In this document: one piece after another, positions 2,131 to 56,800 of the stretch
Layout: the number at the start of each line of letters is the position of its first letter
Numbering within the stretch: position 1 is the stretch's first letter
From: Heptranchias perlo
Lineage: Eukaryota
Length of the DNA: 64,000 bases
Assembly (NCBI RefSeq): GCF_035084215.1
Contig: NW_027139442.1
Location: 2,232,001 to 2,296,000, forward strand
Reading direction: 5' to 3'
Program-made: the position numbers and the translations under genes
Notes under the pieces: generated by a model
Seen by the model: the letters and a program-made list of their open reading frames with translations, nothing else
What the model was told of the DNA's origin: nothing
Databases searched by the model: none

Positions 2131-2711
2131 TTTGGAGAATTAGTTTAAAAAATAAAAATAGAAATGTACAAAAAAAGTGGATAAATTGCAAATTCAACAA
2201 TCTGAATTAAAAACAGAAATGTCCAAACTCACATAAGGCTGATGGTTTGGGTTCTCCTGCCACTCTCAGTCTTCTCTACCTGGGGCACAGGATGAGCAGA
2301 ATGCTTGAATCTATATTTTTTAATGCAGAGTGCGCTGGATGTATGGAATGGACCAGCAAGGGAGGCAGTGGGGCCTGATTGTATCAGCAAATTCCACAGA
2401 GTTGGGAAAGTACCTGATAGCGCTACCTTGGGATATGACAGCCTAGAAATTGGGATCTTTCATTCATTTTTTACACTTGTGCACTTATTTTTATTGATTG
2501 GTGTACCTGGACACCCAAACCCCTCTGCTCCTCCACAGTCCCTAGTTTCTCACCCTTAAGAAAATACTCCCTATTTCTCACCTGATGCCTGCAATAAATG
2601 ATATTTGTATAACTTCCAACATCTTTACGTGGAGATGCCGGTGATGGACTGGGGTTGACAATTGTAAACAATTTTACAACACCAAGTTATAGTCCAGCAA
2701 TTTTATTTTAA

Positions 2712-2752
2712 ATTCACAAGCTTTCGGAGGCTTCCTCCTTCCTCAGGTAAAT
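2712..2752 (-). ncRNA. Minimal hammerhead ribozyme, mirror copy in the left palindrome arm
   Basis: Exact reverse complement of 3069-3109. Confidence 0.75.
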
Positions 2753-3068
2753 GTTCAGGAGCTCCTCGAAGCCTACGCATTTATACATATAGAACAATAC
2801 ATGGTGTTTACAGAATGCCCCTGGAACTGCCCGTTGCCAAGGCAATCACCGTGTTCAGACAGAGAGGTGTCACCTGCAGAACCCCCGAATACACAGTTGA
2901 ATGCACGGTTGAATACACGGTTGAATGTGTATTCGGGGGTTCTGCAGGTGACACCTCTCTGTCTGAACACGGTGATTGCCTTGGCAACGGGCAGTTCCAG
3001 GGGCATTCTGTAAACACCTTGTATTGTTCTATATGTATAAATGCGTAGGCTTCGAGGAGCTCCTGAAC

Positions 3069-3109
3069 ATTTACCTGAGGAAGGAGGAAGCCTCCGAAAG
3101 CTTGTGAAT
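3069..3109 (+). ncRNA. Minimal type-I hammerhead ribozyme (PLE-type)
   Basis: Helix I atttac/gtgaat; core CTGAGGA plus extra A; helix II ggagg-aag-cctcc; GAAA; palindromic AGCT mini helix III; CUU cleavage triplet. Confidence 0.75.
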
Positions 3110-3227
3110 TTAAAATAAAATTGCTGGACTATAACTTGGTGTTGTAAAATTGTTTACAAACATCTTTACGATTCGGGTCTGTTTCCACTCTTCAGTGTCC
3201 AATAAGAAGAGACATAGTGAGACTAGA

Positions 3228-5255: not shown

Positions 5256-6189
5256 CAGACAGTATTCCACCTTCAAAAACAGCACTCGAGAGAGAAAGCA
5301 AGACACACACTGTCAGTCTTACACTTCCTATCAGTATGTTCATATCACGCTCAATAGCAGTATCCAACCTTCATATACAGCACCAGAGAGTGAGAGAGAA
5401 AGGGAGACAGATACTGTGACAGAGCGAGCGGAGAGGCACAGTGCAACAGTATCAGTTCCAGACTGACTTGTAAAGTTGCGTTTTATCCAGAAATTCCCGT
5501 TGTAGAGACAGAAGATGCAGTCTTGTCTCTCACTGATATACCAGAGACGGACACACCATTAATCCCACACTCAGGGACAGTGCAGAGAGTGACAAAAACA
5601 ATGTGGGCCGAATTTAACCCTCTCTTGCCTGTTGTACTACATTCGGTTTTGCAGATCAGGGCCGTTCGCTATTACTCTCAGTGACCGAGAGTTTCACTCT
5701 GATTATATTAATACATCATATATTAATAATGGACTGTTGCTGTCAGATATTAATCCTACACGCTCCCAGCAAATACACGGACTCCGACTTTCCTCCCATT
5801 TTTCTCCAGGATTGGTTTGAGAATTCCTGCATCCAGTTTCGGAGTCACACGTTACTTAATGGGTAAAGGGGCCAAGTATGAACAGAATCCATTGGTTCAT
5901 TTCAAAATGTCCCACTTTATCTATGAAAGACTATTTTCCATCAAAAGATACCGAGAGAAACAGCAGGGATGAAAACATCTCGTTTAATAGTTAGAGATTG
6001 TAAAGTCAGTCTGAATTCCAGCGTTAGTCACTGGTGGAATCCCATCTGTTTCCCATTCTGGTGCCTGTTCCTGCACTGCCTGTGGACCCCATTCCCTCTG
6101 ACCTTTCCCTCAGCCCCACTTCCTTTGCTCAGACTCTGAAAAATTCCAATTGGGGAAAGTTTCCATCGATTTGTGCATTGGGAATTAAA

Positions 6190-11514: not shown

Positions 11515-11650
11515 CCGATTGGTTTCTTCAGGTATCCAATCAGAGAGTTACAGTGAATAATTATTGTTACGTCATTCCCAGTGACCCAATCATGATCATT
11601 GCCTTCCCCATCCCTCATTAGCATAGGGCTGTGGGGCTGCCTATTTAAGT
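11515..11650 (+). promoter_or_regulatory. H2B promoter (CCAAT boxes, CRE-like ttacgtca, octamer variant ATTAGCAT, TATA)
   Basis: attgg 11518, ccaat 11536 and 11586, ttacgtca 11567-11574, attagcat 11617-11624, tatttaa 11642-11648. Confidence 0.75.
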
Positions 11651-11701
11651 CGAACTTGGAGCGGATTTGGGTCATTTCTGTTTCTGAAATTGAGTTTGAA
11701 A

Positions 11702-12076
11702 ATGCCTGAGGACAAGAAAGCAGCTCCCAAGAAGGGCGCCAAGAAAACCTTGAGCAAAGCACCAGCCAAGGGCGGCAAGAAGCGGAGAAAGTCGAGGAAG
11801 GAGAGTTACTCCATCTACGTCTACAAAGTGATGAAGCAGGTTCACCCCGACACCGGCATCTCCTCCAAGGCCATGAGCATCATGAACTCCTTTGTGAACG
11901 ATATTTTCGAGCGCATCGCGGGTGAGGCTTCCCGCCTGGCCCATTACAACAAGCGGGCGACCATCAGCTCCCGGGAGATCCAAACCGCGGTGCGCCTGCT
12001 GCTGCCCGGGGAACTGGCCAAGCACGCTGTGTCGGAAGGGACAAAGGCGGTGACCAAGTACACCAGCTCCAAGTAA
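11702..12076 (+). CDS. H2B: Histone H2B (replication-dependent), 124 aa
   Basis: [12 protein letters not shown]...[26 protein letters not shown]...[13 protein letters not shown]; intronless, with 3' stem-loop. Confidence 0.99.
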
Positions 12077-12107
12077 AACTCCACAATGTACTGAAAAAAA
12101 AAACAAC

Positions 12108-12123
12108 GGCTCTTTTAAGAGCC
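12108..12123 (+). ncRNA. Histone 3' stem-loop (SLBP site) of H2B
   Basis: GGCTCTTTTAAGAGCC-ACCCA followed by HDE-like gaaagtgctg. Confidence 0.97.
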
Positions 12124-12771
12124 ACCCACAACCTCTCTGAAAGTGCTGCATTTCTTATATATTTTCTTAGTATCTTTTTAATACCGCGATATTGTTCCAA
12201 TCCAATACTGATACTGTAACTACGCCATTGAAATTTCTGACACATGAACTGAACGCGAGTTTATGATCCGCTCCTTCCCATTCGCTTTGTTCTAAAAGCG
12301 TTATTATTCCAGCCACGAACACACCCTGAATGACCACCTTAGCAGTGCTATTATCTCTTTGAATTCAGTCTCCGAAATGTTTACCAACTGATGTGAAAAT
12401 CCCCATATTAACAGCAACCACACCCCTTGCAGTAAAACAGCGGAGTAGGGGCAGAATGAGAACTCCGTCCGGGTCCCTCTTTTCACAGAAGCACACCCGG
12501 CTCTGTGAGAAGGGACCAATCTATAACGTGTCACTTTTATAAAGATTAAATTGAAATGTGTCCCTTCACGGAATGCTGTGAATGGGGATTTAGTCCAGTC
12601 CGATACTGTTTGAAAGCGATGACAGAATGAGCTATAATTTAAAGCAGGTTTTAAAATAGCGCCAGCGATTGGTGACGTGTAGCGCTGAATAAGACAAGGT
12701 AAAAAGAACGGGTTTAAAATCTTGTGCTCAGGGCGACATTGATCTAAATCCGGTGGTTTACTGGACTGAAA

Positions 12772-12880
12772 TTGGCGGGCTTTTTGAAATTCATAAAATT
12801 CCTGGTCTGACCGTTGAGGCCGATAAATCTCGCCCTCTTCTGTTTCTCAGCTATCTGATTGGTTAATGAAATATGCAAAT
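12772..12880 (+). promoter_or_regulatory. H2A promoter with CDE/CHR-like element, CCAAT and octamer
   Basis: TGGCGG-gctt-TTTGAA 12773-12788; attgg near 12858; ATGCAAAT 12873-12880. Confidence 0.65.
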
Positions 12881-12926
12881 GAGGTGTATTAGAGAACAAC
12901 AAATCAGATGATCTTTCAGTCCATAA

Positions 12927-13376
<450 letters not shown>

Positions 13377-13406
13377 AGCGGCCAAGAATTAATCTGATAA
13401 CACAAA

Positions 13407-13422
13407 GGCTCTTTTCAGAGCC
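13407..13422 (+). ncRNA. Histone 3' stem-loop of H2A
   Basis: GGCTCTTTTCAGAGCC-ACCCA, HDE gaaagggctg. Confidence 0.97.
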
Positions 13423-14681
13423 ACCCACTGTATCTATGAAAGGGCTGGATACTGTTTGAACGGAGTCAGAAATTAATTTAATAATAAACAATCTGTTTCA
13501 GATCTGGTGATTTCACGTTCCTTGATTCCGATTCTGGATCTAACTGCCTCCCGTTAGTTCCAAACTAACGATCGCTTGTTAAATACAAATGATCTGTTTC
13601 AGTACTCGCCAACCTCCAATAGGTTGAAATATACAGATTGTATGGAAAATGAGACAAATAATCAGTTCATTAAACTGGGCGGGTGGGATACAGAAATAAC
13701 TGGTGAGTTTGATCATCGGCAACAAGAGGCACTCTATTGTGTTCGAGCAATTATTTTAAGTGTTATTTACAGTCTCATCCTCCCACAACACTTACTCGGT
13801 CTGACTTCCATTACCCAGAAGGTGACGGATGTGTTGATTATTGTGTCAGCGATTGCTGAATCAATGATTGAAATCTGTCTGTTACTAGATGAGAGTGAGA
13901 GATTTATTCTGTCCCTGTCAGTCTGACGAGTACCGCAGTGAATGTGACACTAAGTTTCACACTGCTTCTGATTCTAGCGCTGAAAGAAAACACTTTGGTT
14001 CTATTATTGCGAGTTACAGTGAAACAGCCTCTGTCACTACAGCTGGAGAGGGACAATAGTCAAACTCCATTTGATCCGAGACTGGTTCTTTAGAGATTAA
14101 AGTATTTCCAACAGAGCCAAGCTGACACTATATCGGAAATGAGAACTTGCATCTCTTGTACTTTGGACGCTGCACGATCCTCTCCCTGTATATATGTCCG
14201 AGTTAGATTGACACTGGGGGTGCAGATACCTGATGTGAAAGAGTAGGATCGAATTCAGCCGTTTCTGTACCTGTTTACCAGTAATTTCACTGTCCAAATG
14301 TGGCACTGGATGTGATGATGGGACTCAGTCTGCGCAGTGAGTGGAATTCACCTCCCTCCAATCCTGGGTGTGATGTGTGGAAATTAAACTGTGTCGTTTT
14401 CAAATACCTGCTGTTGGTTAGTCTGGAATTGTCACCCTTGTCTGTTTGTGTATGTTTAACACTGCTACTGTACCTGCCCAGAACTTCACAGATCAGCTCT
14501 ACTCCGAACTATCTCCCATGTTATAACCGGCTATGATATGGACAGTTTATAAATGCTAGTCGTGCCCCGCTTGACATCCGCTACTTCCCTTCATGAATTT
14601 CCCGTGTAATTATTTTTTAAATCTGCACTGTCGCACCATTTCAACCCAGGAGATCACAGCTCTTTCCATCGCCGATTTGGT

Positions 14682-14697
14682 GGCTCTGAAAAGAGCC
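14682..14697 (-). ncRNA. Histone 3' stem-loop of H3
   Basis: Reverse complement GGCTCTTTTCAGAGCC; HDE GGAAAGAGCTG at 14657-14667. Confidence 0.97.
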
Positions 14698-14730
14698 TTT
14701 GTTGCACTTGGTGCTGAAGCCGGGTCGGGT

Positions 14731-15153
<423 letters not shown>

Positions 15154-15204
15154 TCACAAAACAACCTGAGACACACAGACTGTTAATACGGAGTGCTCTC
15201 TGGG

Positions 15205-15600
15205 GCCGCCTTTTAAATGGTCTAAGGGAATCCGCCCCTGGCCTGCGATTGGCTGAAGTCCCACATCCTGTCAGGGATGGACAGCCCCGGGCCTGTGATT
15301 GGCTGGTTTGAACCGAGCTTTCACAGTCAGACCGAAACGGTGGGAGGTATTGGGCCCCCTTGGCTGAGCTGAAATCAATCATCAATTTCAAAAAGCCCGC
15401 CAATTTCAGAGCATCAAATAACAGTTTCAAGAAAATCTAATTTCCCTCCAGCAATTTAAAAATCCCACTGTTTATAATCTCCATTATTTCCCACTCCTCA
15501 GCTCAAATCTCAGGCTGTTTCACATTCCGGTTCATTCTCTGATCTGTCTGCAAACGGGACAAAGTCAGCTTCAATTTCAAAAATCCCGCCAGTTCCGGCC
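15205..15600 (-). promoter_or_regulatory. H3 promoter: TATA-like, two CCAAT boxes, two CDE/CHR-like elements
   Basis: TTTAAAA near 15211; CCAAT 15248-15252 and 15298-15302; TGGCGG-N4-TTTGAA at 15387-15402 and 15576-15591. Confidence 0.65.
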
Positions 15601-15948
15601 CGGTGAACCGGTCCTCACATCGAACTGATAATTGAATGAGGGCAGGAAATAAACACCGAGCAGAGAGGACACAGCGGGAGAGGGAGTGAGGAGGGATTTT
15701 ACTCCGCACGGAGAATGTAATATCTGGGGAAAGACTCTGTATCACCGCCTGTACATTTATACCGTGAAATCGGGAATTCCGCTCCTTCTCTCGGGATGGC
15801 CGAGAACCCCGGCCGTTGTTTCTGATCTCCCTGTACCGAGTGTTGGGGAATCTCCCCATACTAATTAAATATCGGAAACTGCTTCCCCACCCCGAGATCT
15901 TTCCTCTCCCCGTTCCCAGGTCAGTGCTCTCTCTGTGAGGCGGTGGGT

Positions 15949-15964
15949 GGCTCTTAGAAGAGCC
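15949..15964 (-). ncRNA. Histone 3' stem-loop of H4
   Basis: Reverse complement GGCTCTTCTAAGAGCC-ACCCA. Confidence 0.97.
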
Positions 15965-15999
15965 TTTGTTTTGTGTCCGGTTAGAAAGGGTCGAGTTGT

Positions 16000-16320
<321 letters not shown>

Positions 16321-16419
16321 TCACTCAGATCGCTGCTGAATGAACAGCTAACTTATAATGCTTCTATTTTTATGCATCCTACCCCGACCTGACTGAAACA
16401 TGCACAGGGTGAGAGAGGG

Positions 16420-16500
16420 AGGGGAGGAGACAGAGTGAAATATTAAACAGAGAGGGGAGGAGACAGAGTGAGATATTAAACAGAGAGGGGAGGAGAGAGT
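16420..16500. repeat. 33-bp purine-rich tandem repeat (~2.5 units) upstream of H4
   Basis: aggggaggagacagagtga(a/g)atattaaacagag at 16420 and 16453, partial at 16486. Confidence 0.8.
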
Positions 16501-17159
16501 CAGAATGATGGACAGAGGGTTAGAGCGGCCTCTGATCTTCCAGCTCCACCTCCAGCTTTCTCCACCCGCCAATTTCAAACCGTTTTTCGATAATAGAACC
16601 GAAACACAACGCTCCGCACAAACCCTTACAGACTCGGGCTTCATATTCAAGGATTCCCAGAAACCCGCAGCTTTTAAATAAGCCACGTTACAATTAACAG
16701 TCAGTAATATTCCTCCCTTCTCTTACAAGTCAACCCGCCTCCTCCCATTTCAGTCCTAGACCCGATTCTATCTCCCCACACATCCCCTCCCAGACGGGTT
16801 CAGCAGTTTACAAACACTTTATTCCAGCTGATTTGAAGAATCTCATGTGTTCAGGTTTGAATTGTGATAGCGGCGGATCTCCGCCAGTTTTACCCTGTCA
16901 CGGACTCTCGCCCTGAATCTGTGAGAAAAAATGAACTGAGACTGGAGCCGAACACACGCCGGTTACAGTGAGGCCCGGCCCGGACATCCCATTCTCTCTA
17001 TTTTATTTTAGACAGTGGGGGAGGGGCGGGGGGAGCGAATATAAGCCAGTCACCAGGACCCTGGGTCCATTTGGAATGATTTCTATCTGAAATCTGAGCC
17101 CGGCCCCGGGACAGGAATCATCTGATTCCCGGATCAGCTCTTTTCTGAGAGACGTGGGT

Positions 17160-17175
17160 GGCTCTGAGAAGAGCC
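17160..17175 (-). ncRNA. Histone 3' stem-loop of H1
   Basis: Reverse complement GGCTCTTCTCAGAGCC-ACCCA; HDE GAAAAGAGCTG near 17135-17145. Confidence 0.97.
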
Positions 17176-17211
17176 GTTGGGTTCAGATGGTCAAAAGTTG
17201 CACTTGATTTT

Positions 17212-17841
17212 TTACTTCTTTTTGCCCGCTGCTTTCTTCGGCTTTGCTGACTTCGGTTTGGGCTTGGCCCTCGGTTTTTCCACCTTCTTCGCCTTCGCCT
17301 TCAATGGTTTGGGGGTCTTGGGCTTCTTCGCCGCCGCTTTTTTCTTAATTGGTGATTTCGCCGCCTTTTTCGTGGTCGATTTCTTGGCGGCTGTTTTCTT
17401 GGCGGTTAATTTCTTGGCCGTTAATTTCTTGAGGGCTGTTTTTTTGGCCGCTGGTTTCTTTCCTGGAGATTTCTTGGTCACTTGTTTCTTCACCTTCTTT
17501 ACCACTTTTGCCTGGGTTTCCTTCTTAGCGACTCTGAAGGAGCCCGAGGCGCCCGTGCCCTTGATCTGCACCAGGGAGCCTTTTTCCACATTTCTCTTGA
17601 TACTTAATTTGATCTGGGACCTGTGCTTCTCCACATCCAGGCCTTTGGTAGCCAGAACCTTCTTTATCGCGGCCAGGGATATCCCCTTGCGATCCTTGCA
17701 ATTCGCCGCAATCTTGAGGATCTGTTCGCCCAACGGGGGACCGGCTGTCTTGTGTCGGGGAATCGCCTTCTTCTTCGGAGCATTGGTTTGAGCGGCGGCG
17801 GCGGCAGAAGGTGCCTTTTCGGCGGCTGCAGTGTCTGTCAT
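17212..17841 (-). CDS. H1: Linker histone H1, 209 aa
   Basis: Winged-helix domain ending LVQIKGTGASGSFR; Lys/Ala-rich tail with S/TPxK motifs; stem-loop; promoter GC box (17941) and H1 box AAACACA (17986-17992). Confidence 0.97.
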   Translation of the reverse strand: MTDTAAAEKAPSAAAAAQTNAPKKKAIPRHKTAGPPLGEQILKIAANCKDRKGISLAAIKKVLATKGLDVEKHRSQIKLSIKRNVEKGSLVQIKGTGASGSFRVAKKETQAKVVKKVKKQVTKKSPGKKPAAKKTALKKLTAKKLTAKKTAAKKSTTKKAAKSPIKKKAAAKKPKTPKPLKAKAKKVEKPRAKPKPKSAKPKKAAGKKK

Positions 17842-19704
17842 GTCCGGGACTCAGTCGAAAATCTCTCTGACAGTCAGAGCTGGGTCAGAAATGAAACGAG
17901 AGGCGGCGGCACAGAGCAACTTAAAGGCACAGAGCGGACGGGGCGGAGACATCCTGCTGTCAGCTCCAGGCCCCTCCAGCCTCTCTGTGTTTCTCTCCCC
18001 TCTTAAACTTCCCGATTCCAATTAAAATCAGGCATTCCAGAGTCCCAGACTAGCCCCTTCCTATCTCTAACACCGGAATGTTTGCTGTCGTAAAACTTTC
18101 ACCCGAATTAAAAGCACCAATTTCGATATAAACCCGTTTCATTGATGCACTGATCGCGCTCTCTCACCCGATCGCTGACATGATCTCGGTTTTTCGGCTA
18201 AATCTTGAATTGAACTAAAACTTATCCTTAAATTTCCACTTCGGAACTCGGCAGGCGAGGAGGGCGATCGCTTAACGGTGATTTTTTTTGAAGTTAACTC
18301 AAAAGGGTCTCGGAAATCCGGCGATGAGACCGGCCACACAAACACAGTGACATTAATCTAACCCGTCCGCCCCTTGAACACACTCTCTCTGACACAACGT
18401 TCACATCTTCACATTCACAGGACAAACTGGTCGCCAGATTGACAATTCCCGAGACAGGCTTTCCTCCCCGCTCGGCCTGTGCTGCCGATTCTCGGGGGTT
18501 AGTTGCAGTTTCCCAGCTCAGTATCTGTTAAACACTCTGTGGCCGGCGCTCCTCACAATGTCTGGTCCCCAGATTCAGGGGCAGGAGCCAATCACAGCTG
18601 TGGATGTGATAATTCACATCTGGTTTTACATTATTAGATTGTTCGCACACAGGGATATGTGTGGTTTTGACGATAATAATAATTTTCCGCTCTTGGCTCC
18701 TCCAGTCTCTCTGTGTTTCTCTCTCCTCCTAAACTGACTGACAGACAATAGTAACTAATGTCCGATCCATCCCATTCTCAACACCCAGAGACGGCTCGTT
18801 ACTGAATAAATTCAACACTCAAAGGCAGTCCAGTTACAGGCTGTTTCTCTCCATCTTTCTTTACAGGATTGGAGACAGTTAAGTGCACCGTCAGACCGGC
18901 TCATAAAGGACAGAGACGGTTTGAACAACACCACACAGACACAGAATCAGTCTTTCATTTTTTTTCAGTGTGTCCATATTACGCTCAGTAACAGTATCCC
19001 GCCTTCATGTACAGAACTAGAGAGAGAGAAAGACAGACAGAGACACACAGGCAGACAGGCATAGTATCCGTCTCACACTTCTCATCGGTGTGTCAGTTTC
19101 ACACATCAGAAACAGTATCCCACCTTCACGGACAGCGCTCGAGAGAGAGTGATACAGAGAGAGACACAGACAGACACAGTATCAGTCTCACACTTCCCAT
19201 CATTGTGTCCGTTTCACAAACAATAAACAGCATCACACCTTCACGTACAGCGCTAGAGAGAGAGATGCAGACAGGCACAGTATCAGCCTTACGGTTCCTT
19301 TCAGTGTGTCTGTACCACGCTCAAGATCAGTATCCCACCTCCATTTACAGTACAAAAGAGAGAAAGAGAAACTGACCTGTAATTGCCTGTTTTCATCCAA
19401 TAACAAATCAGGAGATATTCCATTCCAATTGCTAACCAAAGTGGAGTGACAGAAGTTGCAGTCTCATTTCTCACTGATATTATTTCGGAGACAGACACAT
19501 TATTCATCCCTCTCTCGGGGACAGAGTCACACATTTAACCCTCTCTTCCATTTTGTACCCTCAGCAATCTTGCAGCTCAGTATTACTCTCAGCAGCCGAG
19601 AGTTTCACTCCGATTAAAATAAACTGGGACTGTTGCCGTTAGATATTATTCCTACACGGTCCCAGCAAATACACCGACTCCCACTTTCCTCCTATATTTT
19701 TCCA

Positions 19705-19892
19705 TGATGTGGAGATGCCGGTGATGGACTGGGGTTGACAATTGTAAATAATTTTACAACACCAAGTTATAGTCCAGCAATTTTATTTTAAATATGTTAC
19801 ATTTGCCTGAGGAAGGAGAAAATCTCCGAAAGCTTGTGAATTTAAAATAAAATTGCTGGACTATAACTTGGTGTTGTAAAATTGTTTACAAT
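19705..19892. mobile_element. Second, shorter palindromic PLE derivative with a 12-bp TSD
   Basis: tatatttttcca is duplicated at 19693-19704 and 19893-19904. Same tail (tggagatgccggtgatggactggggttgacaa) and inverted ~50-bp arms. Paralogous sites near 5800 and 40990 are empty. Confidence 0.85.
19801..19841 (+). ncRNA. Minimal hammerhead ribozyme (variant)
   Basis: atttgc-CTGAGGA-a-ggaga aaa tctcc-GAAA-gc-tt-gtgaat; helix II covaries relative to 3069-3109. Confidence 0.75.
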
Positions 19893-20287
19893 TATATTTT
19901 TCCAGGAATGGTTTGAGGAATCCTCCCTCCTGTTTCGGAGTTACACGATCTATTATCAGTGCAGAGTCCAAGAATGAACAGAACCCATTGGCTCATTCCA
20001 CAGCCGTCCACTTTATCTCTGAAAGACTCTTTACCATCAAAAGATACCGAGAAAAACAGCAGGGATGGAAACATCTAGTTTAATAGTCAGAGATTGTAAA
20101 GTCAGTCTGGATTCCAGCGTTAGGCACAGGTGGAATCCCATCTGTTTTCCATTCTGGTGCCTTTTCCTGCACTGCCTGAGGACCCCATTCCCTCTGACCT
20201 TTCCCCCAGACCCACTTCCTTTGCTCAGACTCTGAAAAATTCCAATTGGGGAAAGTTTCCATCGATTTTTGTATTGGGAATTAAAAC

Positions 20288-30530: not shown

Positions 30531-30976
30531 TACAAGCATTTAATACAGCATTACAACGAATGTTTGGTCTAACAAAATGTTCTCCATTCGGAGTTTTTCG
30601 AAATCCCACTCTTGCAATATAATGTGAAGAATGAGTTTATCTTCTGTCCCTCTCTCATCTGCAAACTTCAATGACCCGGGGTTTGGGGACATCTACTGGC
30701 CGGAAGCAGAACTGCAACAGTTCGGAACAAATTGCTGAAACCGGACAACGTGAAGTGTGAGCGTGTTTGTGATTGGTGGCAGCTATTAAATCAGATTGGA
30801 TATCTGAAGAAACCAATCAGAGAGTGAAAGGAAACGTTGACAGAGCATCACTCCCAATGAGCCAATCACAACATGCCTTCCCCCATCCCTCATTACCATA
30901 GGGCTGTCGGGCTGCCGATTTAACCCGAGCTCGGAGCAGATTTGAATCATTTCTGAGTCTGAAATTGAGTTTGAAA

Positions 30977-31351
30977 ATGCCTGAGGACAAGAAAGCAGCT
31001 CCCAAGAAGGGCGCCAAGAAAAACTTGAGTAAAGCACCAGCCAAGCGCGGCAAGAAGCGGAGAAAGTCGAGGAAGGAGAGTTACTCCATCTACGTCTACA
31101 AAGTGATGAAGCAGGTTCACCCCGACACCGGCATCTCCTCCAAGGCCATGAGCATCATGAACTCCTTTGTGAACGATATTTTCGAGCGCATCGCGAGTGA
31201 GGCTTCCCGCCTGGCCCATTATAATAAACGCCACACCATCAGCTCCCGGGAGATCCAGACCGCCGTGCGCCTGCTGCTGCCCGGGGAACTGGCCAAACAC
31301 GCCGTGTCGGAAGGGACAAAGGCGGTGACCAAATACACCAGCTCCAAGTAA
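30977..31351 (+). CDS. H2B: Histone H2B copy 2, 124 aa (several substitutions)
   Basis: Intact ORF; stem-loop GGCTCTTTTAAGAGCC at 31390-31405. Confidence 0.95.
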
Positions 31352-32224
31352 AACTCCACAATCAACTGAAAAAGAAACTTAAACAAAAAGGCTCTTTTAA
31401 GAGCCACCCACAGTCTCTCTGAAGACGCTGTACCGACACTTCTGCATGGACTCATTTTACTGTCGATAGTTTGATACTAACTGTCTCTATATAACTTCTG
31501 CTTTTGTAATTTCTCTTGAAATCTGGAAGATTCTCATAATCACTGCCAGGTATAATCTGTGCGTCGCTTTTTATTTATTCCCAAGAACAAAAATCGTGTC
31601 CCTGATCCTCTCATTCCCGTTCATATTCCGCCCCTTCCTCCGCATCTGCCCCTTCAGAGCCGTCTTAAGGCGGTGGATTAGAGTTCAGTCATTTCTTTCT
31701 CCTTTTCACGTTTATTTGTTCATTATTCCGGAATATCACTTTCAGAACCGCAATCCTTTGAAATGCAGCAACGCTGAAAGGGACTTCACACCGAGTACAG
31801 AATAGTCTAAAGACTCTATAACTGTTCGACTTCTTACACCAGGAGTCTCGGCTCCGGTTTCGATCGCGCTGCAGCTCCTGTGAACAGGGATCAATCCACA
31901 ATCCGTGGTTTGTTACTATTACAAAGATTGAGCTGGAATCTGTCCCGTTACAAAATGGGGCTTTATTCCCGCCGGATTGAAAGCGAACGGAGAATGAAGC
32001 GACTTCTAACTGGAATGTAAAAGATTCTGGAAGTTGTGACGGAAAACGTGGAATAACAGAGTAAAAGGAGAGAGATTTTTAAACCTTTGTCTTTACGCGA
32101 CATTATTTACTAAATCCGCTTCTGGTGTTACAAATATATTGGCGGGCTTTCCAAATTTCAAAAAAACGGTTCAGTTCGGTATTTTCCGCCTTTTTCGCAT
32201 TGCCGGCTATTGATTGGTGAATAA

Positions 32225-32770
<546 letters not shown>

Positions 32771-32924
32771 ATCGGCCAAGATTTAATCTGATAAAACCAA
32801 AGGCTCTTTTCAGAGCCACCCACTGTATCTGTGAAAGGGCTGGTTACTGTCTGAAGAGACTGACCTATTGATCACAGGTGTCCCCGGTCTACGTTAATAT
32901 ATTACATTACTACAGCGGTTAAAG

Positions 32925-33250
32925 TAATGGGAGCCAATGTAAGTCACCGAGCACATGGGTGACAGGTGAACGGGAGTTGGTGGGAGTTCGAATAGGGCAA
33001 CGGAGATTTGGAGAAATTCATGTTCACAGAGGGCGGAAGATCGGAGGCTGACCAGGAGAGCATTGGAATAGCAAAGTCTGGAGGTATCAAGGGAATGGAT
33101 GAGGGTTTCAGCACCAGAGGAGCTGAGGCAGGGGCGGAGACGCGCGATGTTTCAAAGGTGGAATTAGGTCTTGGTGATGGAGCGGATATGTGGTCGGACG
33201 CTCATCTCAGGGTCAGATTGGACACAAAGGTTACGAACGGTCATATTTCG
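32925..33250 (-). mobile_element. L2-clade LINE fragment
   Basis: Minus strand resembles L2 ORF2 C-terminal region (ETLIH..DTSRLCYSNALL). Confidence 0.6.
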
Positions 33251-33269
33251 GACCACACAGTGACCAGGG

Positions 33270-33930
33270 ACTAGTCTCTGTCCATCCCGGTCCCGGAATC
33301 TATCCAGTCCGCACACAGGACCTGGGTCTGTCCATCCCGGTCCCTGAATCTATCCAGTCCTCACACAGGACCTGGGTCTGTCCATCCCGGTCCCTGAATC
33401 TATCCAGTCTCGATACAGGACCTGGGTCTGTCCATCCAGGCCCCTGAATCTATCCAGTCCCCATACAGGATCTGGGTCTGTCTATCCCATTCCCTGAATC
33501 TATCCAATCCCTCGACAGGACCTGGGTCTGTCCATCCCGGTCCCTGAATCTATCCAGTTTCACACTGACTCCAGCTCTAATTCAATTCATAATAGCCACA
33601 CATGACCAATCTCCATCCATCCATGTCCATGAATCTAACCAGTCCCACGGAAGATCTGTCACCATCCCGGTCCCTGAATCTATCCAGTCCCCACACAGGA
33701 CCTGGGTCTGTCCATCCAATACCAGAATCTATCCAGTCCCCACACAAGACCTGGGTCTGTTCATTCGGTTCCCTGAATCTGTCCAGTTCCCAATGTTTTC
33801 AGCTCTAATAAACACATTGTACCCACACAGGAACTGTCTCTGTCCATCCCAGGACCTGAATCTATCCAGTCGCCACACAGGATCATTCTCCATTCATCCC
33901 AGTGCCTGATTCTATCCAGTCCCATACTGA
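33270..33930. repeat. 50-bp minisatellite (caggacctgggtctgtccatcccggtccctgaatctatccagtc...)
   Basis: cagga recurs at 33316, 33366 and 33416. Confidence 0.9.
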
Positions 33931-34449
33931 CCCAAGCACGGAAAGGTACAGATTGCCTTCAACACCGATTGATGTTTATTGAACTATTGGGCGCCTCCTG
34001 TCAGCTACAAATCTGAAAACTAAAACTCCCTCTTCCAACGGTTCCGTCGCGGCACTGATTGATTCTGTTACGATGGAGATTGTATTGGATCTGTAGTGGG
34101 ACTCATTTATTCAATTTAAATTTTACTTTCCGCCTTTTTTTCCGAGATATCCTTGAATATTAAGCCGGAGTCTGTAAGGATTGTGTCTGAATTTATGTTC
34201 CGCATTTGTTGCTGGTGAAAATTTTAGACAGAACGGTAACTAATTCCTGGAGGCGGAGCTTGAAGTTCCACGTCCGCTTGTCCGTCATTCTGAGCCAGTC
34301 TCCTCCCCTCCCGCACTTCATGCTCTGTCTGTCATTCAAACACTCCTCCCCGGCCTCTCCGATAATGTGCCTTTCTCAACCAGGTCGGGGCGGGCTGCAT
34401 AAATAGAGAAGAAAGGCGAGAGTTTTTCATTCAGGGGCGGTTTGAGTGA

Positions 34450-34770
<321 letters not shown>

Positions 34771-35299
34771 ACGACTCGACCATTTCCAACCGGACACAAA
34801 CCAAAGGCTCTTCTAAGAGCCACCCACCGCCTCACAGAGAGAGCACTGACCTGGGAACTGGTGCGGGATATATGGGGCTTGGGAATAGTTTTATTATTAT
34901 GAGGAGTTTTCTGGAACACACAGTAACGTAACGTGGGATCGGCGGCGAGCTGCACCGGTTACTGAGAGGAACATTTCCCTCATTGAGTGCACTGAATTAT
35001 CCAGGGAACGTTACAAGTGAGTTTACCCCGAGCTGAATTCCCCACTCAGTAAAATGTTCCTTCACTCCATTCGCTCTGTTTTGGTTCTATTTATCAGTCA
35101 GATGTTGTGATGTGGGACCGGGGGTTTCCATGGGAGAACAGGTTGAGCTGAGCCGCTGTGATAAGGGCCCAGCTTGTGATATGGATTTTCCCTCTGACGG
35201 TTGTTTCTGACACTGATACTGAGAGGGTTTGTGAAATTGAACCGTTTGAGCTCAGTCATTGGGGACCTGGAATTACCACAGGCCCAACTCAAAGTCCGC

Positions 35300-35510
35300 T
35301 GAAAACTGAGACTACCTCTCATTGGTTGCTTTGCTTGAAAACTAATTTTCTTAACCAATCGGAGAGACGACAATAAGAAAACGGAGCAAATGAGTGGCCT
35401 CAATTGACCGATTTTTTTAAATTTGAAAAAGGCCGCCAATTTCAGTGTATGAAATAAGTGAATTACTCGGACATGTCGTTTTTACACAAAGACTTAAAAT
35501 CTCTTTGTAA
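35300..35510 (-). pseudogene. Orphan H2A promoter remnant (CDS absent)
   Basis: Reverse complement aligns by eye to 12715-12870 and 32080-32260 (ctgaaattggcgg..., gattggttaa). It lies downstream of the inverted H2B pseudogene, where H2A is expected. Confidence 0.55.
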
Positions 35511-36139
35511 TAATGTTATTCCGTATTACACGTCCCAAATTCCTTGCGCTGTTTCAAAAATATATTGTCTTCTAACTTGCGGAATAAAACCCAAATGTCA
35601 CTTCTACCTGTAAAAGTAACAAATCACAGGTTATCGATTGATTCCGTTGCAGGGACTGAACAGGAACCGTGTGTCCTGAAAACGGAATCATTGACGAAGC
35701 CTTAAAATGAGCCGATTCTTTTCCCCAAGGCGTTCATTCCGGATTGTTACACTGCAGGGAACGTGTTGCTTATATGCGCGATATTAAGATCAGTAATTAA
35801 TTATTTCAGAGACTCGCTCCACAGTGAGAAAGAGGAAGTAACTAAATTCTGATTCTCAGCCCTGAAAGTGGTGGTTAACGGGAAAACCGGGGGCGGTGCA
35901 AATCTGAATGAGAGCGAGAGCAAAGCAAAAGGGAATTGAACGAATCGCGGACCCGTGTTCACTTTATTGGGCAGTAAATTCTGCAGAGACAAACATTAAA
36001 ATGGGGGAGTTTCACTGACTTTCTTTCAATTTCCCCACCAGATTCAAAGGATGATGATCGAAATGAATAAATTGACGACATAAGTGCTGTGGGCGGCTCT
36101 TAAAATAGCCGTTGTTTTTTTTCAGTACGTTGTGGAGTT

Positions 36140-36509
36140 TTACTTGGAGCTGGTGTTCTTGGTCACCGCCTTTGTCCCTTCCGACACGGCGTGTTTGGCC
36201 AGTTCCCCGGGCAGCAGCAGGCGCACGGCGGTCTGGATCTCCCGGGAGCTGATGGTGTGGCGTTTATTATAATGGGCCAGGCGGGAAGCCTCACCCGCGA
36301 AGCGCTCGAAAATATCGTTCACAAAGGAGTTCATGATGCTCATGGCCTTGGAGGAGATGCCGGTGTCGGGGTGAACCTGCTTCATCACTTTGTAGATGTA
36401 GATGGAGTAACTCTCCTTCCTCGACTTTCTTCGCTTCTTGCTGCCTTTGATGGCGATTTATTCACCGTTTTTTGTTGACCTTCTTAGGAAGTGTTTTCTT
36501 CACCGACAT
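36140..36509 (-). pseudogene. H2B pseudogene
   Basis: ATG 36509 reads MSVKKTLPKKVNKKR*. Length is 370 nt versus 375, consistent with two 1-nt deletions plus one lost codon. I>F and Y>N changes in conserved positions; stem-loop mutated (GGCTATTTTAAGAGCC, 36095-36110). Confidence 0.9.
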
Positions 36510-40610: not shown

Positions 40611-41539
40611 TAATTCTCAATAAAAATCGATGGAAACTTTCCCCAATTGGAATTTTTCAGAGTCTGATCAAAGGAAGTGGGTCTGGGGGAAAGGTCAGAG
40701 GGAATGGGGTCCACAGGCAGTGCAGGAACAGGCACCAGAATGGGAAAGAGTTGGGATTCCACCAGTGCCGAACGCTGGAATCCAGACTGACTTTACAATC
40801 TCTAACTATTAAACGAGATGTTTCCATCCCTGCTGTTTCTCTCGGAATCTTTTGATGGTAAAGAGCCTTTCAGAGATAAAGTGGGCGGCTGTGAAATGAG
40901 CCAATGTATTCTGTTCATTCTTGAACTTTTTACTGATAAAACTGACGCTTGAGGAAGAAACTGGAGGGAGGATTTCTCAAACCATTCCTGGAGAAAGCAG
41001 GAGGAAAGAGTGAGTCGGTGCATTTTCTGGGACGGTGTAGGATTAATATCTGACAGCAACCGTCCCAGATTAATTTAATCAGAGTAAAACTCTCGATTAC
41101 TGATTGGAATACCGAACGACCTTGAGCTGCAAAACCGAATATAGTGCAACAGGCAGAAGAAGATTAAATTGGCCCATTGTTTTTGACACTCTCTGCAATG
41201 TCACTGAGGGTGGGATTAATAATGTGTCTGTCTCTGGTATAATATCAGTGAGAGATGAGATTTCATCGTCTGTCTCTCCAATGGGATCTTTCTGGAAAAA
41301 AACGGAACTTTACAGGTCAGTCTGCAACTGATACTGTGGCACTGTGTCTCTCCGCTCTCTCACTCACCGTGTCTGTCGCCCTCTCTCTCCCTCTCGCTCT
41401 CTCTGGCGCTTTATGTGAAGGTTGGATACTGCTATTGAGCGTGATATGAACACACTGATAGGAAGTGTAAGTCTGACAGTGTCTCTCTCTCTCTCGCTAG
41501 TACGGACATGAAGGTGGGATACTGTCTGATATAAAAGAG

Positions 41540-42689: not shown

Positions 42690-42737
42690 TAACCACCACT
42701 TTCACAGATACAGTGGGTGGCTCTGAAAAGAGCCTTT
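42690..42737 (-). pseudogene. Orphan H2A-type 3' stem-loop plus HDE, without a coding sequence
   Basis: Reverse complement AAAGGCTCTTTTCAGAGCCACCCACTGTATCTGTGAAAGTGGTGGTTACT matches the H2A 3' end at ~32799-32848; it abuts a LINE tail. Confidence 0.85.
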
Positions 42738-44150
42738 ACATCGAGTTACTTCGGAACTACGGCGCAGAAACAGGCAATTCGGCCCAACTGGTCGATGCCA
42801 GTGTTTATTCTCCACACGAGGCTGCTCCCTCCCTAATTCATCTCACTCGATCAGAATACGCTTCGATTCCTTCCTTCCTCATGTGTTAATCGAGCTGCCC
42901 CTTAAATGCACCTGTGCTATTTGCCTGAGCTACTGCTTGTGGTAGCATTTTCCACATTCTAACCACTCTTTGGGTAAAGCAGTTTCTCCTGAATTCCCTA
43001 TTGGATTTATTAGCGACTATTTTATATTTATTACCTCTAGTTTTGGACTCCACGCAAGTGGAAACATTTTCTCGATGTCTACCCTACGAAACCCCATCGG
43101 AAGACCTCGATCAGGTCACCCCTCAGCCTTCTCTTTTCTAGAGAAAACACCCCCAGTCTGTTCAGCTTTTCCGAATGAGAATATCCTCTCATTTCTCGTA
43201 TCATGAGAATTTTTTTGCACCTTCGATGTCCTTTATATAACATGGAGACCAGAACTGTGCACAGTACTCCAAGTGTGGTCTAACCAAGGTCACATACAAT
43301 TTTAACATAACTTCATTGCTTTTCAATTCTATCCCTCTAGAAATGAATCCTAGTGTTTGATTTGCCTTTTTATGACCGTATTAACTTGAGTCGCTACTTT
43401 CAGTAATTTGTATATATGTACCACTAAATCCATTTGCTCCTCTATCCCGCTCACCCTCACTGACATTCTATCGTTGAACTGCTGTAATATTGTCCTTTAG
43501 TAATGTTGCTACTCCTCCTCCTTTCCCTATTTCCCTTATTATCCAAGCCGTATGTGACCTCCTTATTCTTCATTCTGCAACTTTGTAAATGTTCTCTTGC
43601 ATTTTGATGCATTCTTCCTTTGTATTAACTATATCCCCCAATTTGTTGTCGTCCACTAATTTTGAAATTGTACTTCCGATTCTCGTGTCCCGAATTTTTA
43701 ATGTAAATTGTGAACAACAGTGGTCCCAACACCGACCGCTGTGGAAATCCACTTCCCACCTGTTTGCCAATCTGAGTAACTACCCTTAACCTCTATTCTC
43801 TGTTTTCTGTTTTGTTGCCAGCTTGCAAACCATTCTTCCACCTGTCCCCTGACTCCGCGTGCACTGAACTTAGCCACGAGTCTCCAACGCGGTACCTATC
43901 AAAGGCCTTCGGAAAATCCAAATATACTGCATCTACGACATGAACCTTGCTCTCCATGGGTCTTTCAGTGTGTTTACACTGCCCGCTCACCCTCACTGAC
44001 ATTCTATCTTTGAACTGCTGTAATATTGTCCTTTAGTAATATTGCTACTCCTCCTCCTTTCCCTATTTCCCTGTCCTTTCTAAATATCTTATAGACTTGA
44101 ATATTAAGCTGCCATTCGTGCCCAACTGGTAATCAGGTCTCTGTAATGAT
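42737..44150 (-). mobile_element. Rearranged CR1 LINE (3' UTR, RT and endonuclease pieces)
   Basis: Minus frames give VDAVYLDFPKAFD, ISKLVDD and KGGGVA; 3' UTR at 42737-42900. Confidence 0.85.
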
Positions 44151-44453: not shown

Positions 44454-44525
44454 GCGATGGTGGTATAGTAGTGAACATAGCTGCCTTCCAAGCAATTGAC
44501 TCGGGTTCGATTCCCAGCCATCGCA
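44454..44525 (+). tRNA. tRNA-Gly(TCC), divergent and possibly a pseudogene
   Basis: 72-nt GCGATGG...CCATCGCA cloverleaf with anticodon TCC, B box GGTTCGATTCC and a T5 terminator at 44534-44538. D-loop GG>AG; mismatches in the anticodon and T stems. Confidence 0.85.
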
Positions 44526-48905: not shown

Positions 48906-50276
48906 GGTATTAGAAGGGGAGGATTTGCAGATGGGAAACTCAAACCAAACATCACATCAAGATCTGACAGTCACTCGATTCACCAGCACCTGAAGATCAT
49001 CTGCCTTTGAATATAGAAGGAGGAATGTTTGTCTGTTCCGTCTCTGAGAAGAGATTTCAAACATCAGTGTAACTGGAAAAACACCGAGACACACACACCC
49101 GAGTGAGAGTGTTCCAGTGCACTGACTGTGGAAAGAGCTTTAACCAGTTACACAGCCTGAAAAAAACATCGCACCATTCACAGTGGGGAGAAACCGTACA
49201 CGTGTTCTGTGTGTGGACGAGGCTTCAACTGATCATCCAACCTGGAGAGACACAAGGACACCCGGACCACGGAGAAACCGTGGAAATGTGGGGATTGTGG
49301 GAAAGGATTCAGATTCCCGTCCCTTCTGGAAACTCATCGACGCAGTCACACCGGGGAGAGGCCGTTCACCTGCTCCATGTGTGGGAAGTGATTCATTCAG
49401 TCATCCAGTCTTCTGACACATCAACTGGTTCACACTGATAAGAGACCCTTCAAATGTTCTGACTGTGAGAAGAGCTTTAAAAGTAAAACGGAACTACTTG
49501 CACACCAAGGGACTCACACTGGGGAGAGGCCGTTCACCTGCACTGAGTGTGGGAAGAGATTCACCCAGTCATCCCATCTGCTAACACACCAACGAGTTCA
49601 CACTGGGGAGAGGCCGTTCACCTGCTCTGTGTGTGGGACGGGTTTCACTCTGTCACCCAGCCTCACTGAACACCAACTTGTTCACATTGATAAGAGACCC
49701 TTTAAATGTTCTAACTGTGAGAAGAGCTTTAAAGGAACAAGTGATCTGCTGACACACCAGCGTGTTCACACTGGGAGAGGCCGATCACCTGCTCCGTGTG
49801 TGGGAAGGAATTCACTCAGTCATCCAGCCTACTGATGCACCAGCGTGTTCACACTGGGAGAGGCCGTTCACCTGCTCCGTGTGTGGGAAGGGATTCACTC
49901 GTTCATCCAAACTCATTGAACATCAACTTGTTTACACTGATAAGAGACTTTTCAAATGTTCTGACTGTGAGAAGAGCTTTAAGAGAAAAAAAGAACTGCT
50001 GACACACCAACGGACTCACACTGGGGAGAGGCCGTTCATTGCTCGCTGTGTGGCAACGGATTCACTCAGTTATCCAGCCTCATTAAACATCAACTTGTTC
50101 ACACTGATAAGAGATCCCTGAAATGTTCTGTCTGTGAGAAGAGCTTTAAAACAAAGTGGAATCTGCTCACACACGAACGTATTCACACTGGGGAGAGGCC
50201 ATTCACCTGCTCTGTGTGTGGGAATGGATTCAATCAATCATCCCACCTGCTGAAACACCAGCGAGTTCACATGTGA
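48906..50276 (+). pseudogene. C2H2 zinc-finger array pseudogene (~12 fingers plus ~3 degenerate upstream fingers)
   Basis: Repeated CxxC...HxxxH with TGERPF/TDKRPF linkers; acceptor ccttttacag ending at 48905. The probable start before [13 protein letters not shown] is ACG (49269). In-frame TGA at 49389; frameshifts near 49773, 49856 and 50038; final TGA at 50274-50276. Confidence 0.92.
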
Positions 50277-51700: not shown

Positions 51701-52554
51701 CGGAGCCGTCAGCCCGACCCCCGCCAAGCCCGCTCTCCCATCTCAGGCCACTCTCGGGTGCGGGCCCTCCCTTTGTCGGGCGAGGACCCGCAACATCATC
51801 CTCCTGGCCCCGGCACAAGGACCGCGTCTTGACGTCAACGCGCTAAGGTGAGTGACGCTGACGCGTGTCACTTGATGGGAGGAGTCAGCCCGGGGTCCGG
51901 GACGGGGGTGGTGAGAGCTGTCAATCAAAGGGCCCGGAGTCAGCACTCACTGCGCAAAGGGTTTGAAGAATTTGTTTAAAAATGCAAAATCTGCAATAAT
52001 GAAATTAAAATATAAAGGTACAAGAAAGGGAAGAAATTTCAAGTACAACAATCTGAATTAAAAACAGAAACGTCCAAATTCATATCAGGCTGATGGCCTG
52101 GGTCCTCCTGGGTCCTCCTGTGTCCTCCTGTCACTATTAGTCTTCTCTCCCTCGGGCATAGGATGAGCAGAATGATTGAATGTAACCTTTTTAATGCAGA
52201 GTGTGCTGGATGCATGGAATGGTCCAGCAAGGGAGGCAATGGGGCCTGATTGTATCAACAAATTCCAGAGAGTTGGCGAAGTACCTGATAGCGATACCTT
52301 GAGTTATGACAGCCTAGAAATTGGGACCATTATTTTTTTTTACATGTGCAATAACTTTTAGTGATTGGTGTACCTGGACACCCAAACCCCTTTGCTCCTC
52401 TCCAGTCCCTAGTTTCTCATCATTAAGGCATTAATCCTATTTCTCACCTGGTGCCTGAAGTAGATGCTCTTTGTTTATCTCCCCATATTTGTACTGTCCG
52501 GCTGTATCTCCACCATTCACTGTCTAATAACATCAGACACGTTGAGACTGGAAC

Positions 52555-53888: not shown

Positions 53889-56800
53889 CTATGATTTAAC
53901 TATTCTAACAATTATATTCAGTGGGTATTTCACCCCGTTTATCAGCTCCTCTCTGAATTTAGTCTGGGTCACAGCATAAATACACGTGTTGGTGCAGGAA
54001 CTGAGAAGTTGAAGCATGAATGCGGCTGACTCAATGTCACTGGTCATATAGTTCTGGACGTTTGTGAAACGCACAGAGATAACATAAAAAGCTTCTGTGC
54101 TCCATAACAATATAAAACTGCCTGATATACTGAAGAGTAAAATGATGGATTTCCTTCGATTCTCCATCTCTGGATCCTTGTGATTCTCTCCATTGCTGCG
54201 GCCCCGGAGTCCCCTGCGGAGTCTACTGGCCGCTAATATGTGCCTGGCGGTGAGAACATTGAACAGCAAAATCAGAATGAATGGGAGACAAGGCACTAAC
54301 ACAAGATGAAACAAGTCAAACGCTGCCCATGCAGTTGAAGTGAAGAAGGTTGGTTTCAAGACACAACCCCGGGCTACATTGTCCATTGTATATTCCGGGC
54401 CAATTACAAAGTACCAGGGAATGTTTAGGAAACAGCTCAGCGCACTCACCACCCCGATAACAACAGCCACCGTTTTCTCGGTGCAATATTTTGTTTTCAG
54501 CTTCTGACAACAAATGGCCACAAATCGATCAAAGGTGAAAACCACTGTGAACCAGACCGAGGCCGTTGTGGCTGCTAAACTCAGGCTGGCAATGAGACGG
54601 CACACGGGGGTAATGGTCAAGAATGAAACTTGGAAATAAATAACAACAATGCGCCACATTAGGACATCAGTGATAACGACCAGGAGATCGGCCGCCGCCA
54701 TTCCCACCAGGTAACGAGTGATACATTTGGAGAGTCCGCACTTTCCTCGGGACAGGATCGCAATCGCCACCAAGTTAACTGTAAGAGAGAGAAACGGAAG
54801 CAGAGAAATTACTGATCAGACCTGGAGCCAAAGCAGCAGTTTGACAGGATCTGGGGTGAAATTTCTAGCTTTGTCGCTGCATCAAACGTTGGAAACTGAT
54901 TCACTGACCTGGGCAGCGCTTTCGGGCAGAGAAATGTTTTTAAATACAATGATCAAGAATGAATTGGGAAATTGATAAGGAAATTGAATAAAGTGAGCAC
55001 CGGATGCACTGGAAGGGCCGAATGAGGGCGCAGTGCCGGTGGGGAAGGGAGAAGGTGTTTTACGGAGGAATGCAACGTATTGAAGACGGAGTTGGGCTCC
55101 AGACGAAGGGGGGAGAGAGCGCGGGCCGGGAAGGTGAGGGGACAGGGATAAGTGCTGCTGGTTTGTTGCTCTGGGGTCAGAGAGCTGACAGGGGGTGGCA
55201 CAAAACGGGAAAGCCCGATATCCGCGGCGGTGTGTTTCAGGCTTCTGTTCGGATTGGAAAAGACAGCTGGAGGCTGAGCCAGAGAGTGAGATTGGGAGGA
55301 AGACAAGGAAAAATACATGTAGGAGCTGGAGGGGAGTGAGTAGCAGATGATTTGGGAAAGCGGTTAAACTGAATCAACGGATGAGGAGACAGAGGATTCA
55401 ATGCAGTGGGAGGAGAGACTGTGATTCACAGGGAGAGACTGGAGGAGGGTGTTCGAGGGAATTAATGAATTCAACCTTTAATTTTTATGTTTATCTAAAC
55501 AAAAATCTCGGTTTTTTTATATAACGCGGTCAATAAATTTACTTTGCACATTCAATTATAATTAAATTAAAAGGCATTAATTAAATTAGCCTCGTTCTTT
55601 ATTGAATTAAGTTGACACACAATTTTTAGAATACAGTATCCTAATAATCCAATAGGATCAACAAATGGCTGATTTTATTCTTTAATTACATTTCAATTAT
55701 GTTCATGTATTCAGTCATTAAACAAGTAAGTGGAACATTCACATAAACAGACTGAGGACCTGATAGGGTTAAAAACATCCGGCACGAGTACAATAAAATT
55801 CACACATCTATCGACGACATCCTAATAACACCTTCAAGTCTCATTTCCTCTGCATAATTGTACTGCAAATTTCAGCAGTTCATTCCGATATATAATTCAC
55901 AACGCTGCCGCTCTCTCTCTCTCTCTTTATCTGTCTCTCTCTTTCGTTCCTTCTCCCCCTCCCTCTCGTTTTCCTTCTCAGTCGCGTTGTCTATCGCTCC
56001 TCTCTATCTCTCTGCACTCTCTCGACTCTCTTTCTCAATGCCCCTTTTCCCATCCGAGTAAATCCGAACATCCTGCGCCTGCTTTCTCTCCACCAGTCCC
56101 GTGTTCCAACGATCATATTCTTCGTGTCCGTTTGTTAAATGGTGAATCCTCTGTGAACAGTTTAATGTTTCTACAGATCATCCAAGTCTCCACCTGTTCA
56201 CCCACACTGTTCACTTCATCTACAACGCATGTTCCAGAAACACATCGCAAGAATTGAAATTCCTTCTCCTGCAATCATAAAGTACAGCGTTAGATGGCGG
56301 CATTGTTCAATGAACAAAACGCCAACATCACCGCTGCTGCTGAAAATCTACAGATAAATAGAAGGGCTCCTGATTCCAACAGATGAAGTGCAAACTGATA
56401 CAACATAACCTCAAAACATTGCATATTAAAGTGAATTCATCCACAATGGAACAGAGAATGAGATGTGAAAGAATCAGCAGCAAACTCAGTTCAGTAGCCA
56501 GACCTCTGGAGATGCGTGAGATACACACATAATGAAATAATATTTCATAACAGTGACAACCAATAAATACATTGAAATCCCATTTAAACTGAGCCATGTT
56601 ATTGAAGAGGTAGGACATTGCGCTGCCTCCTTGTAACACTAAGACCGTGAGCTGTCTCATTATCAATCACTGAAAACACATTTTTGAAAAAATATTCCAT
56701 GGCAGGTTCGTTCAACAACATGAAACAATTAATGGCTCCTGATGGTCTGATACCAGCTCTTAGCCCAGACACCTGATTCCAATGCATTCAGTGCAGAGAA

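Follow-up and report, generated by a model that had tools for sequence, protein, structure and literature searches.

A young, severely truncated insertion with a minimal hammerhead motif, very probably of a Penelope-like element, in a histone spacer cassette

The analysed window, a 64-kb stretch of DNA, contains a vertebrate histone gene cluster whose cassettes are duplicated and separated by 46- and 82-nt satellites. One of the duplicated spacer cassettes hosts the 188-base insertion on which this analysis centres, and an additional insertion of the same family, here called the first copy, lies upstream (Table 1). Elsewhere in the window we observed a tRNA gene-like match (44454-44525, 45 bits), a C2H2 zinc-finger array of 11 units with an 84-nt period spread over several frames (49073-50271), which is probably a broken gene, and a stop-free minus-strand frame of 308 residues that matches a rhodopsin-family seven-helix receptor (53892-54815). 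Reverse transcriptase fragments (RVT_1, E 3.6e-06) at 59630-61226, presumably from a CR1-like LINE, are unlinked to the insertions. Among 42 reading frames scanned outside the first copy, a single one (59989-60450) matches RVT_1, and none of the four frames over the first copy matches Pfam. An exact look-up of two of the histone proteins matched neither of them; the appearance of the H2B start and of the repeat may point to a cartilaginous fish as host.

Table 1 Features of the two insertions and their surroundings (positions within the window).
Feature	Position	Strand	Remark
Histone gene cluster	11627-17850, 30902-36457, 42694-42739		H2B, H2A, H3, H1 frames; 7 histone 3' stem-loops
Target site duplication (TSD), left	19693-19704	+	12 bp, 83% A+T
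Candidate ATG	19702-19704 region	-	far end of tail, partly within TSD
One-sided tail	19705-19739	-	35 nt; sequence after pLTR in element RNA
Left inverted arm	19740-19793	-	3' part of pLTR; end is the base paired at helix I fifth position
Filler	19794-19798	-	5 nt; reverse complement of family bases 3066-3070; marks head-to-head junction
Minimal type I hammerhead	19801-19841	+	sequence read directly; pairs and energies computed
Helix I	19801-19806 with 19836-19841
Core block 1	19807-19813		then extra A at 19814 before helix II
Helix II	19815-19819 with 19823-19827
Core block 2	19828-19831		then 4-nt palindrome 19831-19834 replacing helix III
Predicted cleavage position	after 19835
Right arm	19840-19892	+	3' part of pLTR, without tail; identical to first copy
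TSD, right	19893-19904	+	12/12 bases equal to 19693-19704
Empty paralogous site 1	5797-5808	+	insertion-less flanks align without gap at site, 234/272 aligned bases
Empty paralogous site 2	about 40989-40999	-	insertion-less flanks align with 1-base gap, 260/299
First copy, same family	2630-3158		30-nt tail, 233-nt inverted arms (1 mismatch), hammerhead in each arm
First-copy hammerheads	3069-3109; mirror near 2712-2752	+; -
First-copy TSD	2618-2629 / 3159-3170		12 bp
First-copy centre	2887-2926		12-nt tandem unit, 3.3 repeats, composed of sequence from both arm ends

The architecture proposed in the first-pass annotation of this DNA, a tail combined with inverted termini, is borne out: the arms measure 54 nt, and the left arm plus tail agrees with the first copy at 84 of 85 positions, with a single private change at 19749. 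The arms (19740-19793 and 19840-19893) are complementary at 53 of 54 positions and spaced 46 nt apart; the family bases that match the filler sit immediately upstream of the hammerhead in the family sequence. A 20-mer from the arm occurs four times within the window against 0.01 expected, so the repeat match is not due to chance. Alignment of the flanks also confirmed the empty sites claimed for two paralogous cassettes, each of which carries one copy of the target sequence. Given that the arms differ at one base and the cassettes by 13-14%, the insertion must be much younger than the cassette duplication.

Comparison with the first copy, which has an empty paralog of its own near 52490, shows what is shared and what varies between integrations. 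Each insertion is flanked by its own 12-mer, as had been noted, with 12 of 12 bases matching in both cases. The tail had been called the same; this holds for its sequence but not for its length (35 nt against 30 nt). The arms differ about fourfold in length (54 against 233 nt), the centres are unrelated, and the two insertions carry three hammerhead motifs between them, one arm of the short insertion being without one. The centre of the first copy looks as if microhomology priming had occurred repeatedly where the two halves meet head to head. A base that makes up just 0.2% of family depth in run X3 (public contigs, below) is found in both arms of this copy, which hence derive from one parent. 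The differing centres and arm lengths, together with this shared rare base, support the proposal that the inverted architecture is formed anew at each integration, a conclusion already published for Penelope-like elements (PLEs; PMC2377424).

These observations suggest that 19705-19892 is very probably a recent remnant insertion of a PLE, severely 5'-truncated and bearing a minimal hammerhead. PLE insertions are typified by inverted truncated copies, by short duplications and by a tail at a single end (also PMC8969392): PMC8557442 describes a '30- to 40-bp extension' and an 'inverted 5'-truncated copy', rotifer examples in PMC3846280 have a 31-bp tail and 8-10 bp duplications, and Schostak 2008 (PMC2377424) reports a 34-37 bp repeat with inverted repeats whose size differs from copy to copy. 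The window copies display a head-to-head inverted truncated copy of variable size, a tail at one end only (within or at the edge of the expected 30-40 nt), short and perfect TSDs, and a hammerhead inside the pLTR. Relative to endonuclease-bearing PLEs (Penelope/Poseidon, Neptune, Nematis), the head-to-head arms, variable size, 30-35 nt tail and A+T-rich target duplication are the same, whereas here the pLTR region is reduced to its final 94 nt, with no reading frame and with one arm lacking a hammerhead; the TSD is 12 bp here against the 8-10 bp given for rotifer PLEs (PMC3846280). Because none of the frames scanned ties a reverse transcriptase or GIY-YIG domain to the family, membership is based on these non-coding hallmarks, which make it highly likely, and no clade is assigned. 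We found no literature on this family, which the supplements of PMC4209133 or bioRxiv 10.64898/2026.07.22.740005 may list.

The conserved hammerhead core (C3-A9, G12-A15.1, U16.1 and H17) is present at 19807-19813 and 19828-19835, along with three PLE-specific features: an extra base between 9 and 10.1 (19814), G10.1-C11.1 (19815 with 19827) and a palindromic 15.2-16.2 (19831-19834). The initial description had the core and helices right and passed over the extra A between core and helix II. Pair probabilities range from 0.59 to 0.96 across the 11 pairs of helices I and II (43-nt stretch). The fold showed no extra stability over shuffles (z -0.2 to -2.0, five stretches), and no hammerhead family appeared among the 8 rows of an Rfam listing or the 23 rows of a second; the microRNA rows in the second listing are far under thresholds and reflect the long hairpin only. 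With the Rfam and shuffle tests unsupportive, the identification depends on the hand-read core letters, the helices and the PLE features. Cervera and De la Pena (PMC4209133) describe PLE minimal hammerheads with the same core, extra base, G10.1-C11.1, 15.2-16.2 palindrome and short helix I, the same absence of helix III and compensatory variation between lineages, and the main text of that paper places PLE hammerheads in fishes, coelacanth, frog and reptiles. Helix II has 5 bp here against 7-8 bp in the Schistosoma hammerhead families of the same paper. Such minimal hammerheads cleave as dimers according to a statement in a review (PMC6765202); simple co-folding of two motifs did not yield an active dimer, and the lone copy at 19801-19841 is probably inert.

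The hammerheads of the two insertions differ at exactly four of 43 nt, every difference being a transition. Helix I changes at 19805 (A to G), turning an A-U into a G-U pair, and the loop-closing pair of helix II changes on both sides (19819 G to A, 19823 C to T), from G-C to A-U; the core letters are the same in both. All of this agrees with the first-pass annotation, which listed the helix changes correctly and omitted the loop change at 19822 (G to A). Its phrase 'across subfamilies' goes too far: at all six family-variable sites downstream of the hammerhead the window copies agree in state, indicating that they are near relatives and not distant subfamilies. Moreover, the hammerhead contains four of the five differences that separate the two copies, which makes it the most variable part here and not the most conserved.

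To place this pair within the family, contigs from four of 18 listed public runs (X3, X7, X9 and X12) were aligned to a 276-base family stretch, 2925-3200; runs X10, X11 and X13-X16, with under five words each, were left out of counts. Runs X3 and X7 come from one sample and X12 from another organism, the contig data are unphased, and the variant cut-off was 2 in 100. Because X7 is only guessed to be RNA and shares its sample with X3, it neither demonstrates transcription nor counts as an independent run. With 17,340 contigs on the stretch in X3 and 2,985 in X7, the family is very abundant and recently active; the one aligned contig of X9 ends short of the hammerhead. The tail extends past the arm end in three of the four runs (119 contigs in X3, 30 in X7, one in X12). 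Further copies were not recovered by wider scans: viral_contigs gave 1, 2 and 0 loci, all three being chance matches without the element, metagenome_contigs gave 0 and 0, and genome_contigs 0. Nine joints to earlier places, of unstated kind, are listed for X3 and X7 together, and the window holds no partial tandem with direct pLTRs.

The hammerhead variant itself recurs in these data. Two contigs of X12 have a 23-letter end that matches 19799-19821 exactly, and in one contig both partners of the A-U pair are present around another loop. Since the variant occurs in contigs of a second organism, it is inherited and does not reflect decay of this copy; it is an inherited minority lineage of the family, possibly from a single event. 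The share of depth that carries the helix I change is 2.8% in X3 and 1.4% in X7, seen in 28 and 24 contigs, respectively. The helix II changes are unlisted for both runs; assuming linkage with the helix I change, they would stand at about 0.7% of depth, below the 2% cut-off. A variant at 3108, which makes up 27-33% of depth in three runs, disrupts pair five of helix I, barring a partner change concealed in the ends clipped before 3073. Loose contig ends just before 3073 number 138 in X3 and 33 in X7, with low agreement (0.48 and 0.43). The X3 consensus of these ends (agreement 0.48) closes on a base that would convert the helix I U-G pair to C-G. Separately, three contigs of X12 skip 69-76 nt directly upstream of the hammerhead (2996-3073), which may represent a shorter lineage of the family.

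As to how the insertion arose, we favour a model in which the parent would be a very abundant endonuclease-bearing PLE and the target a duplicated spacer cassette of the histone cluster. The element protein would nick both strands of the A+T-rich site 12 bases apart, and reverse transcription would begin at two places, 35 nt past the pLTR end to give the tailed left arm and at the pLTR end to give the tail-less right arm; both the two-strand nicking and the two internal starts are taken from published PLE work. Joining of the arms head to head, at a point immediately 5' of the hammerhead, is a step we infer; repair would yield the duplication. Read in this way, the plus strand from the left TSD and the minus strand from the right TSD would both be antisense, as PLE chemistry predicts. 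The hammerhead would be a passenger of the pLTR, the parent RNA most likely being cleaved only as a palindrome dimer or with the element protein, and its four differences would be inherited from a minority family lineage with the fold retained. Alternatively, one arm could have been copied from the other by fold-back of a single cDNA. The near-symmetric arm lengths keep this as likely as priming from both nicks, and the symmetry in both copies fits fold-back better than two independent primings.

The model finds a parallel in PAc, a Poseidon element of Anolis carolinensis. According to PMC11167929, its purified protein nicks A+T-rich DNA on both strands and extends each of them, reverse transcription starts at two internal sites bounding the tail, and hammerhead cleavage needs the protein and is dispensable for insertion in vitro. 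The present insertion would share with PAc the two-start bounds of the tail, the nicking of both strands, A+T-rich targets and a hammerhead in the pLTR. The reading frame of PAc begins at hammerhead stem II (PMC11167929), whereas here the sole candidate for a start codon, an ATG, lies on the minus strand at the outermost end of the tail.

One detail of the junction deserves separate consideration. The left arm had been recorded as differing in length, and it does, but it is not plainly shorter: it lacks 37 nt, equivalent to 19803-19839, and then resumes for the 5 nt of the filler. The missing segment is bounded by 19803 and 19839, which pair with each other in helix I. Of the four helix I pairs that it takes in, two are G-U, and antisense DNA folds helix II only, so that only the sense strand can form the skipped stem. 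It is conceivable, if unlikely, that the reverse transcriptase hopped the folded hammerhead, copying to 19840, skipping 37 nt and resuming for 5 nt on the partner strand. Were this so, the hammerhead would have been uncleaved and in its folded form on the template at the time of integration, and the arms would have been primed separately on RNA from two nicks, which would amount to genomic evidence for PLE twin priming. A later deletion at the centre of the unstable 96-bp palindrome explains the missing segment as well, and so does a tiny fold-back hairpin. No such 37-nt skip is found among the contig joints at the cut-off of 2 in 100, and the skip in this insertion is a single case. We rejected a plain microhomology deletion, which would leave two bases fewer than observed.

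Whether the paired change in helix II reflects selection on the RNA fold, as first proposed, was weighed against chance. With four random changes, some pair is altered on both of its sides in 7.3% of placements, and the core and all pairs remain intact in 5.2% (transitions only; 6,437/123,410 placements) or 2.0% (mixed changes); the fold is kept together with a double change in 1.4% or 0.5%, respectively. These values of 0.5-5% mildly favour the proposal, on the basis of a single comparison selected post hoc, and the covariation itself amounts to one double change between two copies plus unphased contig data. The core-versus-flank check did not separate the two either: variable sites in the public contigs number 0/31 in 3074-3104 against 5/49 downstream (p = 0.15, not significant) and 0/31 against 10/203 elsewhere (p = 0.37).

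The main alternative is that the switch from G-C to A-U is neutral variation at the loop-closing pair, helix II being effectively 4 bp long with a variable 5-nt loop, a reading to which we give a substantial but clearly minor share of belief. It is favoured by the nature of the changes, all four of which are transitions with three grouped within 5 nt round the loop, and by energetics: the changed pair contributes 0.7 kcal/mol in 19705-19892 against 2.1 in the first copy, with a pair probability of 0.73, and the fold weakens from -10.0 kcal/mol in the first copy to -7.6 kcal/mol. The 7.3% rate of two-sided hits, the 2-5% rate of intact folds and the non-significant contrast with downstream sites are also compatible with neutrality. 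Against it stand the A-U pair retained with a different loop in the second organism, the rarity of a kept fold with a double change (0.5-1.4%), and the lack of any position in 3074-3104, the core included, that varies at 2 in 100 or more in any of the four runs. The pair does not prove selection, given a single event at the weakest pair, a null result of 0.5-5%, p = 0.15 and a variant at 3108 that would break a pair. The proposal of selection on the fold remains plausible, having been argued for PLE hammerheads generally in PMC4209133; it is likely for the family as a whole, with this pair of copies insufficient as proof.

Other identities for the insertion were also considered. A short non-autonomous hammerhead element, retrozyme- or SINE-like, mobilised by PLEs and moving as a fixed small unit, would account for the depth profile of X3, which rises about threefold at 3073 (upstream it is about 2.4-3.2 million, across the hammerhead 7.5-11.7 million), and for the loose ends before 3073, which lie near the start of the right half of 19705-19892. 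Precedent exists in the pLTR-derived retrozymes reported from vertebrates, including one chondrichthyan (bioRxiv 10.64898/2026.07.22.740005): these non-LTR retrozymes are likewise non-coding, pLTR-related and equipped with a type I hammerhead, but they are made of tandem hammerhead units, in contrast to the single inverted insertion here. No tandem array covers 19705-19892 (none among 55 rows), the two window copies have unrelated centres, and the loose ends agree poorly and come from contigs, which cannot show starts; we therefore consider a fixed unit very unlikely. A MITE or a fold-back DNA transposon whose likeness to a hammerhead arose by chance is scarcely credible. Long inverted arms and a direct duplication would suit it, but the left-end tail lies outside the inverted repeat, fixed inverted repeats at both termini are missing, the arms, fourfold different in length between the two insertions, simply repeat one sequence in inverted orientation, and the hammerhead core is complete with PLE-specific features.

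Taken as a truncated PLE insertion, the locus presents structural features that are all already published for PLEs, and compensatory changes in PLE hammerheads were likewise reported in 2014 (PMC4209133); the skipped 37 nt is the one new detail. Its value is as an entry point to a very abundant, recently active family with thousands of young insertions. Such a family could show whether the pLTR hammerhead is selected although its cleavage is, according to PMC11167929, unneeded for insertion in vitro, and how the inverted arm arises, by fold-back or by priming from both nicks.
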